Source of the DNA: Octopus vulgaris
Taxonomy: Eukaryota
Reading direction: 5' to 3'
NCBI GenBank assembly: GCA_951406725.2
Contig: OX597821.1
Coordinates: 51,336,001-51,400,000 of the forward strand
Length of the DNA: 64,000 bases
This document shows positions 2,674 to 61,958 of the stretch, in pieces. Under the pieces are notes generated by a model. That model worked only from the letters and a program-made list of their open reading frames with translations, ran no database searches and was not told the DNA's origin. A program made the translations under genes and the position numbers. Position 1 is the first letter of the stretch. Every line of letters begins with the position of its first letter.

Positions 2674-2888
2674 GGCAACAAGATGGTAGAAATGGTAGCA
2701 CGCCGGACAAAACACTTAGCGGTATTTCTTCGGGATTTCTATTCCGATTTCTAACGCCACCGAAGATGAGTTTGTCTTTCTTCCTTTCGCAGTCGATAAA
2801 ATAAGTACCGGTCAGATACTGGGATTGAGACAACCGACTACCCAATATCGATAAATTCCAGGCCTTTACCTATATCAGAAAGCATTAT
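2674..2888 (+). mobile_element. SINE family A copy
   Basis: Contains gcacgccggacaaaacacttagcggtatttc and gtcgataaaataagtacc. Confidence 0.8.
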
Positions 2889-3032
2889 TTTTATAAATAT
2901 TTGAAATATTATCAAGATATGCCGAACTGCAAGGTTCTCTCCTTATGTAATTCCGTATATTTATCGACTGGTACACGCACACACGCACGCAAGTACGCAC
3001 GCATACACACATCTGAATGTATGTACACGTGC

Positions 3033-3033
<1 letters not shown>

Positions 3034-3091
<58 letters not shown>

Positions 3092-3172
3092 TATATACGT
3101 ATATATATATATATACGTACATATATATATACGTACATATATATATATATATATACACGTATATATATATAT
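3034..3172. repeat. (TA)n-based compound microsatellite
   Basis: Direct reading; source of YIYI ORFs. Confidence 0.95.
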
Positions 3173-3199
3173 AAGTGTATATAAGTATATATATTTTAT

Positions 3200-3420
3200 G
3201 TGTGTGTGTGTGTTTGTGCTTTTCCCCAATCACCACTTGATAACTGCTGTTGGCTTGTGCATATCGCTTCAACTTAACTGTTAACCAAGAGAGAACTCCG
3301 GAATCAATACCATGGTTTAAAAATAAATCAATACGGGGCTGTATCCTTTCCATTAAGACCCTTCAAAAGCGGTGCCCCAGTAAGACCGTGACCAAAGACT
3401 AAGAGATGTAAGAGGTAGAA
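3200..3420 (+). mobile_element. SINE family B, degenerate 3' half
   Basis: ttgataactgctgttgg..aacttaactgtt..aaagcggtgccccag matches the 3' half of the copy at 45090. Confidence 0.6.
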
Positions 3421-3450
3421 GATAAATGCTAAAGTATACACCACGATAAG

Positions 3451-3483
<33 letters not shown>

Positions 3484-3490
3484 ACATATA

Positions 3491-3724
3491 TGAAAAAACA
3501 AGTCAAGATAGAAAATGCTAAAATAATTTTATAAAGAACATCTCAGTACCGGTTTCAGTCATTTGAGACCTTTTAAACTGTAAAGATTAAATAATGAAAT
3601 TTAGAAAAATTAAAAGAAAAGTTTTTTTTAAATAATATGTGTATAGTGTTCAAATATAAGTGGCATTTTCCTTGTTTCTGCCTTTCTTTGTCTCTCTTGT
3701 TTACACTTGTGGGTTCGAGGTCGT

Positions 3725-3730
<6 letters not shown>
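3491..3730 (-). mobile_element. Small element between (TA)n tracts carrying a decayed hammerhead-like motif
   Basis: Bounded by TA runs; first ~55 nt recur at 11762-11816; HHR-like motif at 3544-3580. Confidence 0.6.
3544..3580 (-). ncRNA. Decayed type I hammerhead (U3-A8 variant, G5 mutated)
   Basis: Minus strand: cag UUUAAAA gguc-ucaaau-gacu GAAAC CG GUA cug. Confidence 0.45.
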
Positions 3731-3766
<36 letters not shown>

Positions 3767-3845
3767 CATATTATATAAGTGTAAATATATTTTTTTTATA
3801 AACGTACATATACACACATACAGACACGCACACACATATACACAC

Positions 3846-5044
3846 ACAGTGTCCGTTGAATAAATGGTCGTCTAAATTATGCAAAAATGAAAATGACATT
3901 GACATCTCATTTTCACAGATATATTTACCAAAGGCGCATAAAAATATCTTGAAATACGGCCTTCAGAAGACTTCAGAATCTCTTGCATCTCTTCTGGACG
4001 ATCTACGTGTTTAAGTTGGTGAATGCTGCCATAAATCTTGCCTTCAGTTAGTCTTTGATGTTACAAGCAATTTGGTCTCTCGCTCCACTGCGTCCCTCAC
4101 ATAATAATCAAGGGAGTTGCAGTCTGGGGAGTTAGGTGGGCAGATGTTAAGGGTGATGTGGTCGCAGTAATTGTCTGACAGCCATGACTGAGTTCTCCTG
4201 CTTGTGTGGCATGGTGCAGAGTCCCGTTGCCAGACATAAGGTCTTCCAGTAGCCACCCTCTTCACCCGGTGTAGCAATGCCTCCTCCAGACACTTGATGT
4301 AGGCCTCCGTGTTGAGTCTGAGAGCGCGTGGGAAGATAAATGGAGGCATAACGTCACCATCACTAGTGATCACTCCAAACATCATGATGTTGATTGGATG
4401 TTTGATATTTATTACTCTCGGTAATTGCATTGGGGACACCGAAAGCCAATGGTTGTTCTGTGTTTCTCGTCTGAGGAAAACCACAAAATATTTGGTTGGA
4501 GGGGATGCTGGAGTTTGTTCAAAAGCTCCGAAGCGCGGTCTCTCCTGTTGTCCTTGATGGCTTGGGATAAAAATTGGCCCTTTCTCATCTTGAATATGGA
4601 ATATACCGAATGTCTCCATGCACTACCTGCCATATTAGAAACTCAGACACTCCCATGTTCCTGGCGATAGACGTGATTGATTTGGATGGACCTGATTGTC
4701 AATCATGCCCTGGATCTCACCAACAAATTCAGGAGTTCTTTTCTTATCAGAACGATGACGGTGAGGTTTCGTAATTACCATTAGATTCATCAAACTCTTT
4801 CCGGATCCTCTGTACTGTTCTCAGACTGACACCAAAAATCTCAGAAATGTTCGTATTGGAGCTTCCAGCGCAAATGCCCAGCAGTACAGCTTGTTTCCAA
4901 ATTTCTGGCAAAGTTGCATCATGGTGCTGTTTTTTTCGCAGACGGTGCCCAACTGACCTCACTATACGACAAAATCAAAAACAAAGACTATGCATGCGCG
5001 AAATAGAAATATCAAATTGCGACAAGTTACCCATATACACTTAT
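3846..5044 (-). mobile_element. Tc1/mariner transposon, DD37D (maT/Bmmar1-like), frameshifted
   Basis: HTH-like ISEIFGVSLRTVQRIRK (ORF 4747-4962), WFSSDEK (ORF 4412-4633), and WQRDSAPCHT..PPNSPDCNSLDYY (ORF 4044-4619) with 37 residues between the 2nd and 3rd D; termini only weakly inverted. Confidence 0.9.
3930..4925 (-). pseudogene. DD37D transposase pseudogene
   Basis: Catalytic and HTH motifs split across three ORFs by frameshifts. Confidence 0.85.
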
Positions 5045-6088
5045 ACAATATATATATATATATATATATACATAGTCGAAATATATGGAAAATTGGAAAT
5101 AATACGAGGAGCATTTAGAAGACACATATCATCAGTTCGTCACTTTTATAATTGCGTATTCTGAACAGCTTACTAATGCGATTCTATTACAAACGCTAAC
5201 TAGACCTATTGTTGCAGGCAATGGTTTTATATATATTTCCGTCATTGACTATCTCTGTCATTTCATTATCTTATTCCGTCTTGATCGCTATTGCTTTTCC
5301 TCTTTCTGTTTATAAAACAATTTTTCATTGTCTCCTATTTATATCATTGCAGATAAAAAATACATACATATATATATATGTGTGTGTGTGTGTGTATGTG
5401 TATGTATACATATATACATACCATAAGAATGATATGATATATAATATATTAAAAGTATGTCATTATGTTAGCATGTGTTTATGTGTGTGTGTATATGTGT
5501 GTGTATGTATATATTTGAGTGTATATGATATCAATGACTTTGCAGAGATTTTTATTTTCTGTCATTAGACGTGAGTAAATATATATATACTGTGTATATC
5601 GAACTTTTAAGCTGTTTTTGTTAAACCTAAGTATGGCACTTTTATACCCTACTTTTATGAGTGCATGTATTCACAGAACTGCACACACACATATCTGATT
5701 CTCTCTTAAATGGATTTAAAAAGCAATGGCTTATGGTTAACATAGCCTGTAGTACTCTTGATGATTTACAATAAAAAAATGCTTTCAATTAATTTAGTAA
5801 AAATCATTTCTATTGGTCAGCTATATAACTTACTTGATTATTGAATTAATTACGTGTACTCCCCACGAAACGGTTGTAGGAATTCATTAAGCTATAAACA
5901 ATCTGTAACGTCTATGCTTTTCTACATTTTAGACTCTCTCTTTTCTTTTTACCTTTCTCTTTCTTTCTCTCTCTATATATATGTATGTATGTATATATAT
6001 CTATCCATCATTCTATCTATCTCTCTCTCTCTCTCTCTCTCTTTCCCTTACTCTCTCTCTCTCTATGTATATATACATATATATATGT

Positions 6089-45089: not shown

Positions 45090-45490
45090 GGCGCAGGAGT
45101 GGCTGTGTGGTAAGTAGCTTGCTTACCAACCACATGGTTCCGGGTTCAGTCCCACTGCGTGGCATCTTGGGCAAGTGTCTTCTGCTATAGCCTCGGGCCG
45201 ACCAATGCCTCGTGAGTGGATTTGGTAGATGGAAACTGAAAGAAGCCTGTCGTATATATGTATATATATATGTGTGTGTATATGTTTGTGTGTCTGTGTT
45301 CGACCCCCTAGCATTGCTTGACAACAGATGCTGGTGTGTTTAGGTCCCCGTCACTTAGCGTCACAGAGACCGATAGAATAAGTACTGGGCTTACAAAGAA
45401 TAAGTCCCGGGGTCGATTTGCTCGACTAAAGGCGGTGCTCCAGCATGGTCGCAGTCAAATGACTGAAACTAGTAAAAGAGTAAAAGAGTA
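45090..45490 (+). mobile_element. SINE family B, full length
   Basis: Head ggcgcaggagtggctgtgtggtaag through tail gtaaaagagtaaaagagt. Confidence 0.93.
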
Positions 45491-45785
45491 ATAGAGGCAC
45501 TCGTATATTTGACAAAAGAATGGGTGTATTATTCAAATACACAGTATTATAGATCAATTACAATCGATCTTATCAATCGTTTTTACATCAGATATTAGAT
45601 AACTGGACGGTTAGTTAATACCCGTGCTCTTCAGAGCAATATACTGTCGAACGCTATTCTGTTGAACACCATTTTGTTGAAATCATTTTGAAGAATACAA
45701 TTCTATATTTAAGAGGTGAGGAATTATGTACATTATTTACATTATTTACATTTGATGGATATTTGTCCTCATCTTCTTTGTTGTT

Positions 45786-45831
45786 AACACGACGTTTCGG
45801 CTGATATACCTTCCAGCCTTCTTCAGATGTC
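45786..45831 (-). ncRNA. Type I hammerhead ribozyme
   Basis: gacau CUGAAGA a ggcug-gaagguauau-cagcc GAAAC GUC guguu. Confidence 0.8.
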
Positions 45832-45919
45832 TTGGGGAAATTTCGAACCTGGGTTCTCATTCTCTAAGGTATTTTTCGATGTTGTTAATATTATTATTCA
45901 GGTCACTTCCTGGAATCGA

Positions 45920-46000
<81 letters not shown>

Positions 46001-46177
46001 TACAACAACAACAACAACAATAATAATAATAATAATTACAACAACAACAACAATAATAATAATAATAATAATTACAACAACAACAACAACAACAACAATA
46101 ATAATAATAATAATAATTACAACAACAACATAAAAAAAACCTTACGAATGAGAACACAGGTTCGAAATTTCCCCCAA

Positions 46178-46223
46178 GACACCTGATGAAGGCTGGATTG
46201 TATATCAGCTGAAACGCTGTGTT
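46178..46223 (+). ncRNA. Type I hammerhead, triplet mutated to GCU
   Basis: gacac CUGAUGA a ggcug-gauuguauau-cagcu GAAAC GCU guguu. Confidence 0.65.
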
Positions 46224-47504
46224 GACAACAAAAAGATGAGGGCAAATATCCGTCACATGTAAATAACGTAAATAATGCATTTTGAAGAATATTTTCTTAA
46301 AAGATAGTACAGAAACATAAGGTTATGTAGTGTGACAAGAAAATGGCAACATCACTGTTAGAATTTCTCTGAACTTATATATATTTTTAATAATGTTAAG
46401 CCACGATCAAAGAACAACAATAACAGCATCAGTATATATATATCCGTCATAATTGCCATGAGTAAAGTAGAGTCTGATTCTTAATGTCATTAATGATTGG
46501 TTTTAATCGAGCAGTGATTTAGACATGGGATACAAACTGCTAATGGAAATTGTTCTACCAAACTACTTCTAGTCCCATTACTTAGCGCCAACTTCTTACC
46601 AGGAATTTCGTATCTCTCAAGTTGAAGACATCTCGAACTGTATCAAATTTCTTTTGGATTGAACACTAAACATCAGACTTCATGCGTTAAAGCAGCAGTG
46701 CATCGCTTTATTGACATATACTACAGTTATTTAGAGTTATTTGGAATGGACAAGTATCGTAGCTGTTACTACAATATAACTACATAATATCTAAAAATCG
46801 AGATGACCATGCCTCTGTTTTTGGCCATATCAATTTATCCACCTGTAACTACAACAGCAGAAATAAGAGAAAATACGAGGCGTTCATGGCGATATCTAAC
46901 ATCTCAACTCTTGCCTGTTTTCAAATACGATGAGATAATAAAGTAACATTAACGAAACGATATGCAAGTTTTGCTTTTTAAAAAATCATATTACAAAAAA
47001 TCGAAACCAAATTTATCAAATTGTTATGAGAGAGTTAATAATATCAAAAAAATAATAAAGTGAATTCAAAATTTACTTTATATTTTTCCACCAATTTTAT
47101 TTTTATTTATAAAATTGTATTTTCACAACCGTCCAATGTTGTCCCTCACAATGTTTCTCTAATTATCATTTTTGTTAATTTAAATTTCTTGTTTGAAATT
47201 CAAATTCTTCTTTTTTCATATTATATTAACCTGAGCATTTCTATACTGATTTATTCTGTTATTTTAATTTTACGAGATAAAATAGCCAAGGTCTGCTAAC
47301 TGATTGATAGTAGTGTTAAAATTAAATCGGAATTTTTTTAAATTAAAGTTACTCGTTATTTTGTTTTCTTTGCTGTAATCAAGAAATATTTTTTCAAAGT
47401 ATCTGGCGTGATATTCAGCTTCACTTTTAATACTAGGCGACACCAAATAATGATTGAACAATTTCGTTTATTGTATGTTTTCATTCCATTAGTTTTATTA
47501 CTGC

Positions 47505-61629: not shown

Positions 61630-61958
61630 ATATAAGAGGGATGGCCACTAAGTAATAATTCTACCAATTACATTTGGAGTAGAACTTTATACATGCTCAA
61701 TCTCATGCGGACGTCTCGTGTATAGTTCTGAAAATCATATTTTGCTATGACGATCACACTGATGAGTGATTACGTAAGTGGTAGCAACGAAACTGGTCTG
61801 TGATTAATCTGTATATTTTCTATATTTTCATTTGTCTTGCTCGCCGACGTTCTGACGTTTGCTAAATTTTCTTGAGAATATTCCTTTCTTAGTGGTAAGA
61901 CCATAGGGTGGCTACTTCTAGTCTATAGATATCCACTTAGTGGTCATCCCTCTTATAT
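61630..61958 (+). mobile_element. ~330-bp element with 24-bp inverted ends and a central hammerhead
   Basis: atataagagggatggccactaagt (61630-61653) versus acttagtggtcatccctcttatat (61935-61958), one mismatch; adjacent to (TA)n. Confidence 0.8.
61752..61805 (+). ncRNA. Type I hammerhead ribozyme
   Basis: gaucaca CUGAUGA gugauuac-guaagug-guagcaac GAAAC UG GUC ugugauu; predicted cleavage after C61798. Confidence 0.8.

Follow-up and report, generated by a model that had tools for sequence, protein, structure and literature searches.

A probable decayed head-to-head pair of Penelope-like element 3' ends in Octopus vulgaris, from a coding family with a tRNA-like head in its terminal repeat

What is the fold-back sequence with a hammerhead motif in each arm that lies at positions 45684-46291 of a 64,000-nucleotide stretch of the Octopus vulgaris genome (contig OX597821.1; hereafter, the window), and from what kind of element does it derive? 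An earlier note on this DNA described it as a single insertion and a complete, protein-free derivative of a Penelope-like element (PLE). The outline given there holds: the 14-bp target site duplication (TSD) is exact, with the sequence at 45684-45697 recurring at 46278-46291 and just these two copies in the window; the two copies enclose 580 bp; and 33 additional nucleotides (45698-45730) are present on the left arm only. The inverted arms (45731-45886 and 46120-46277) are identical at 137 of 153 aligned positions, and each contains the motif CUGANGA...GAAA once, on opposite strands and both reading outward. The long hairpin that had also been claimed is strongly predicted, i.e. the insert folds in silico into a single long hairpin of -220 kcal/mol (z -25.8), and 0 of 100 shuffled sequences were equally stable.

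On the minus strand, the left arm comprises, from its outer end inward, the 33-nt PLE tail (45698-45730), which is the 3' end of the arm and in long copies continues into the open reading frame (ORF); the core of the pseudo-LTR (pLTR; 45731-45880) in which the PLE ORF starts, with an in-frame ATG at 45860 and a peptide that is also found at the beginning of P0019, a relative of 847 aa; a short (AAT/AAC)n tract (45881-45898); and, beyond this tract, a 21-nt remnant of the 3' end of a 75-nt tRNA-like head (45899-45919), which marks the 5' truncation point of this arm. On the plus strand, the right arm starts with the final 3 nt of the head followed by an expanded (AAT/AAC)n tract (45920-46129), and its pLTR core (46130-46277) finishes at the tail-less end point of the family. 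The two arms meet head to head at 45919/45920. Because head remnants flank this joint, the former spacer is better described as two internal microsatellites, a short version in the left arm and a long version in the right arm, that meet at the truncation joint; thus, the earlier description stands for the inverted arms, while the (AAT/AAC)n tract belongs to the pLTR and there is no separate spacer. An empty allele was not found: one contig from a second individual reaches from the left flank 9 nt into the tail, too little to qualify as bridging, and three other runs lack coverage of the site.

In other copies, the family unit has the order 75-nt head, (AAT/AAC)n tract, hammerhead segment and tail. 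The first lead to a parent element was one head-to-head copy found behind an endonuclease-like frame. A genome search with the endonuclease protein gave 4440 candidates, of which 150 were scored and 30 loci retrieved. The hammerhead segment was found directly after the ORF stop codon in 27 of these 30 loci, the query locus included; in the remaining three, the palindrome or the head was present, followed by a break inside (AAT)n. These loci bear out the proposed Penelope origin. They do not support the description as a complete protein-free derivative, since they place the unit at the 3' end of a protein-coding PLE; in the window copy, moreover, the head is nearly gone from both arms.

In long copies the tail continues into a frame for reverse transcriptase (RT) and endonuclease (EN). 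In one of them (L181), the tail is joined to an ORF that has a C-terminal EN as well as a DKG motif and RT motifs, the latter matched by Pfam RVT_1 at E 5.8e-8; Pfam did not score the EN directly in the family ORF, and the EN region matches P0066, which bears PF01541, with a pairwise E of 2e-13. The majority sequence of 74 loci mapped on L181 is one open frame of 803 aa that is 57% identical to the 847-aa P0019. The family ORF contains the DKG motif and CCHH in the EN and has no CX2-5CxxC (Zn-finger) linker. Because of the CCHH and the lack of this linker, the criteria in the accessible text of PMC8557442 mean that the parent, as judged from its predicted protein, is of the Penelope/Poseidon type. 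Moreover, the family and the Zn-linker PLEs of this genome fall into separate groups in trees of related loci, which included no named reference PLEs. The pLTR is present on both sides of the ORF, insertions are both tandem and inverted, and the tail is present on one end.

Compared with Poseidon of Anolis carolinensis (PMC11167929) and Penelope of D. virilis (PMC2377424, PMC8557442), insofar as the accessible parts of these papers describe them, the octopus family is alike in its RT with a C-terminal GIY-YIG EN and no Zn-finger linker, in a pLTR hammerhead that overlaps the ORF start, in its inverted 5'-truncated copies and AT-rich targets, and in a tail of 30-40 nt at one end, a segment bounded in Poseidon by two RT start sites. 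It differs in that a tRNA-like A/B-box head and (AAT/AAC)n start the pLTR, in that 5' ends pile up at this head, and in that the sense strand has no run of four T (T4).

The family is abundant. Searched with one extra A/T condition each, a 15-mer from the tail had 5108 exact matches in the genome (control 9) and a 15-mer from the head 1503 (control 0); as a rough estimate, tailed ends may total about 20,000 once decay is allowed for. The 5' part of the ORF gave 404 genome candidates. Family arms differ from the majority sequence by 5.6%, a value biased downward by selection, and ORF pieces by about 10%. The family repeat was also present in thousands of contigs in runs of two other organisms. 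In total, we consider it probable that the decayed window element pairs, head to head, two 3' ends (pLTRs) of a coding Penelope/Poseidon-type PLE, each truncated at its 5' side, and that it likely stems from a single insertion and is likely immobile now. On this view the locus is unremarkable, a dead copy among at least 5108 tailed ends.

The dominant intact PLE of the same genome, with a 781-aa protein, was considered as a partner and rejected, since 30 loci and 15 longer stretches showed no common hammerhead or tail, with the exceptions of one nearby copy of the window family and one 18-nt match. This young PLE (L076, L077, L079) has many open 781-aa frames with a Zn-finger linker, and a second open frame of 330-380 aa precedes the 781-aa frame. 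Separately, the (AAT)n tract of four family copies (L008, L025, L040 and L149) contains fragments of another LINE, which we take to be Dong/R4-like.

The family head aligns in register to a tRNA-Arg of the same genome (z 7.8; best of 27 distinct sequences of few isotypes, from 30 tRNA loci), and it carries A and B boxes at tRNA spacing, as judged from the general box consensus. ARAGORN called no tRNA in five heads nor in 18 of the 56 related loci. Among arms that reach the head, 35 of 51 end within -8 to +7 of it (6% expected), and everywhere outside this interval the rate of 5' loss is about 0.004 per nt. In one-sided cases, in which one arm ends at the head, the partner arm ends at least 60 nt short in 17 of 22; because the partner ends so far from the head, pairing at the local palindrome explains the pile-up in part at most. 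A second sample, selected by the head, gave a similar picture: 26 of 38 heads start a copy, and the hammerhead segment follows the head in 30 of 38, while the other eight look cut or interrupted, which makes a standalone SINE of head plus (AAT)n less probable.

The coding strand of the family has a second peculiarity. Three near-full copies have 0, 1 and 1 T4 runs in the sense strand, and the 2708-nt majority sequence has none (shuffle mean 4.9, P 0.0085). In codon-aware tests on the majority sequence, P was 0.057 with its own codon usage and 0.022 with that of other PLEs, i.e. the T4 deficit is modest when amino acids and codon use are fixed. A synonymous-site test gave 0 of 15 versus 165 of 359, with sites that are non-independent, and its P was set aside. 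G4 runs are likewise absent from the majority sequence (expected 1.2), and low Phe is common to the family and its nearest relatives. As controls, we used 21 ORFs, i.e. 18 from the 56 related loci (frames of at least 350 aa, one perhaps not a PLE) and three from the same genome. None of the 21 lacked T4, and 18 were above their own shuffle mean. What is unusual in the window family is, in sum, that copies stop at a tRNA-like start and that the coding strand is without T4.

One distant PLE pairs similar features. L293 has an A/B-box head at the same position as the window family, and this head is the sole A/B-box match in 71 scanned loci, with a chance expectation of 0.23 per 202-kb set. It has two T4 runs per 2791-nt unit versus 6.0 expected (P 0.05, borderline), both within the first 230 nt after the hammerhead. 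Its RT core is 44% identical to that of the window family, with which it was not grouped with support in a tree without three short rows. The counter-case is L298, whose ORF is likewise poor in T4 runs and which lacks a head. L293 itself is an intact, 100% identical tandem PLE on a metagenome contig, with a head at 2821-2907, a hammerhead near 2987 and an open frame at 2845-5547. Between its stop codon and hammerhead, it carries the tRNA-like A/B-box head plus AATAATAAT.

The pile-up and the A/B-box head suggest, with about even likelihood in our estimate, that the template RNA starts at the tRNA-like head, i.e. at a promoter of Pol III type. Copying from the 5' pLTR would then reach the end of the template after about 300 nt, and short fold-backs would flood the genome. 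It is possible, more tentatively, that Pol III transcribes the whole 2.7-kb unit with the ORF included. Equally tentative is the general reading in which some autonomous PLEs would carry a tRNA-derived Pol III promoter in the pLTR, with a coding strand purged of T-run terminators and strong-stop-like short cDNAs that end up as fold-back pairs, in two distant lineages, i.e. the window family and L293.

If true, this would break the usual split in which Pol III serves short non-coding elements and Pol II autonomous ones; a Pol III-made coding retrotransposon of 2.7 kb would need cap-independent translation; and hammerhead repeats with a tRNA head, Sm-alpha among them, could be derived from PLEs by such a route. 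In the accessible text of PMC10886601, Pol III is argued to limit element length. That paper describes the TRIMp3 elements Cassandra, Helenus and Ajax, which, as far as this text goes, are alike in a small-RNA-derived Pol III promoter inside a retroelement terminal repeat; however, they are short non-autonomous LTR elements whose autonomous partners are expected to use Pol II, whereas the octopus head lies in the repeat of a coding PLE itself. Our searches of the open literature found no coding PLE with a promoter of tRNA type in its pLTR. Because octopus repeat libraries list many Penelope families, according to the accessible portions of PMC13282606 and PMC8967140, the window family may already be catalogued.

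A serious competitor, which we rate at somewhat less than even, is that the head is a passenger, i.e. an old tRNA plus (AAT)n insert in the pLTR at which Pol II starts or RT stalls, with the lack of T4 as a by-product of an A-rich and Phe-poor ORF and with the same mechanism of insertion. It fits with the PLE start sites known in the pLTR and with the Penelope promoter, which is LINE-like and has an intron in the accessible text of PMC2377424 and PMC8557442, as well as with the range of the codon-aware T4 test (P 0.02-0.06) and the parallel absence of G4. Moreover, there is a short palindrome near the head, at the pile-up, and it is used by 111 exact head-to-head centres (control 0). Against it, copies end at tRNA position +1 even if the partner arm ends far off, the control PLE ORFs mostly exceed their shuffle expectation for T4, and in the distant L293, too, a head in this position goes together with few T4 runs.

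It is improbable, in our view, that the short copies form a separate non-autonomous and tRNA-headed family, SINE-like and similar in kind to Sm-alpha, that makes use of the PLE enzyme. Short copies do far outnumber ORF-bearing ones, as judged from the matches of the tail 15-mer and the ORF 5' candidates, and most heads in the second sample start a copy. However, the same head is found inside the coding element, after the stop codon; two copies (L348, L349) extend from the head, where they begin, past the tail and into the ORF; and the majority sequence has no T-run after the tail able to end a short Pol III RNA. The position of the head inside a coding element is also why a tRNA-derived SINE, as a non-coding unit apart from its autonomous partner, was rejected. 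The window copy itself is cut too short for assignment to either a SINE-like family or a coding PLE. In the accessible text of PMC2770079, Sm-alpha and Sj-alpha of schistosomes are likewise high-copy repeats in which a hammerhead and tRNA-derived sequence occur together; they differ in being non-coding and SINE-like, whereas the octopus unit is part of a coding PLE, namely its pLTR, and inserts as tailed inverted pairs.

Returning to the window copy as a truncated pair of PLE 3' ends, we examined its hammerheads. At 45786-45831 (minus strand), the left arm contains a minimal type I hammerhead with an intact core, the extra base 9/10.1, the G10.1-C11.1 pair, a palindromic helix III and an NUH triplet (GUC), and its predicted cut is after 45791; as in the family, it overlaps the start of the PLE ORF. 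The motif in the right arm at 46178-46223 (plus strand) is degenerate (C11.1->U and U16.1->C); it failed the core test, with the G10.1-C11.1 pair and U16.1 lost, and is likely inactive as judged from these changes. Among the 74 family arms that cover the core, 37 passed this test and the other 37 are broken. Rfam at its gathering scores matched nothing in the window, and neither a hammerhead nor a tRNA in four loci, one head and L293/L298. As monomers, both hammerhead regions fold no better than shuffled sequences (z -0.35 and -0.16).

By their sequence, both window hammerheads are minimal, dimer-type motifs on opposite strands. They resemble the minimal hammerheads of metazoan PLEs in the accessible text of PMC4209133 in the short helix I and long helix II, the extra base 9/10.1 and the palindromic helix III, and the ribozyme itself shows no difference from these except for the degenerate copy in the right arm. 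According to the same text, minimal PLE hammerheads show no monomer cleavage and low dimer cleavage, and a same-sense partner is reportedly needed; it also already calls opposite-strand hammerhead pairs 100-700 bp apart probable truncated PLEs. Any single transcript of the window copy would have just one sense hammerhead motif, which the predicted hairpin would bury. The claim that both strands encode a hammerhead is thus right for the sequence and has to be qualified for function, because the core in the right arm is degenerate and both motifs belong to the minimal type.

These observations leave the view of the earlier note, i.e. a complete protein-free fold-back with two working ribozymes that is kept for, or acts via, its dsRNA hairpin, as very unlikely. 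The very stable predicted hairpin and the intact left core with its GUC triplet would suit it. Nevertheless, the arms are both cut, within the head or shortly past it, where random truncation would typically fall; the core of the right hammerhead is damaged, as in half of the family arms that cover it; the arms are ~10% apart without a compensating pattern; and the Anolis Poseidon protein requires ORF sequence past the RT start sites (PMC11167929, accessible text), which is absent from the window copy. Because just 21 and 3 nt of the head remain, the window copy has no promoter, and a hairpin RNA from it would need read-through from outside; given such read-through, editing or the formation of siRNAs is plausible.

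To see how often copies with the same architecture occur, we took a census of 90 tailed copies in chromosome order (L151-L180, L199-L258). Before the final counts, spurious inverted calls in L218 and L252 were removed and one end of L179 was corrected by hand. An inverted second arm was present in 59 of the 90 copies, and in 48 of these 59 the second arm ended 25-35 nt before the tail end. A TSD score of at least 9 was found for 37 of the 59 inverted copies, no solo copies and 2 of 270 control places; TSD length in the family is variable, about 9-17 bp. Moreover, derived changes common to both arms occurred at 0.0090 per site within elements versus 0.0034 between elements (2.7-fold; 39 pairs; 0 of 2000 permutations); these common changes could instead stem from later gene conversion. 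With one TSD around both window arms and the same build in most copies, the census supports the single insertion event that had been proposed. It is scarcely credible that the arms inserted independently of each other or that they are the terminal inverted repeats of a MITE-like DNA element: the window arms have no derived change in common (0 in 130 sites), as this reading would have it, but one exact TSD encloses both arms, the asymmetric build recurs in the census, TSD length varies, and the arms are unequal and correspond to the 3' end of an RT-coding element.

Asymmetric ends, variable TSD and RT-linked sequence also led us to reject a MITE or fold-back DNA transposon as a class. Animal non-LTR retrozymes, as the accessible text of PMC7229834 and bioRxiv 10.64898/2026.07.22.740005 describes them, are similar in being short hammerhead sequences related to PLE pLTRs; this class was rejected as well, since retrozymes are head-to-tail tandems with same-strand hammerheads, whereas the window element is head-to-head with motifs on opposite strands.

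The shape of the insertion is already published for PLEs and is not new. Inverted copies and a one-sided tail of 30-40 nt are described in the accessible text of PMC8557442 and PMC11167929, which confirms the statement that inverted pseudo-LTRs with a short one-sided extension are a PLE feature, and for Anolis Poseidon in vitro the tail is the gap that separates two RT start sites (PMC11167929, same limitation). By analogy with Anolis Poseidon, the enzyme would nick the target at two places 14 bp apart, each nick would prime one cDNA, one at the outer and one at the inner RT start site, and the two cDNAs would be joined at their truncated ends. The proposed distance of 33 nt between the outer and inner start sites would account for the one-sided tail. 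The census traces the TSD, the inverted partner and the tail on one side back to a single event, in agreement with two-site priming in vitro. A TAT directly follows 40 of the 90 tails and is also the element's own next sequence, and the window TSD agrees with the element's own next sequence for 4 nt; microhomology at priming or a variable start is possible.

Among the window ORFs of at least 110 aa, inspection by eye, which short exons escape, recognised no host exon. An open stretch at 4044-4622 (minus strand) looks, again by eye, like a fragment of a Tc1/mariner transposase. An unrelated minimal type I hammerhead-like motif with a GUC triplet lies at 61752-61806 (plus strand) in another repeat family, which has 327 genome candidates and no match to PLE loci L046-L090. 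Finally, 200 bp to the left of the fold-back element, at about 45093-45480, there is a SINE of common tRNA type, presumably octopus-like.
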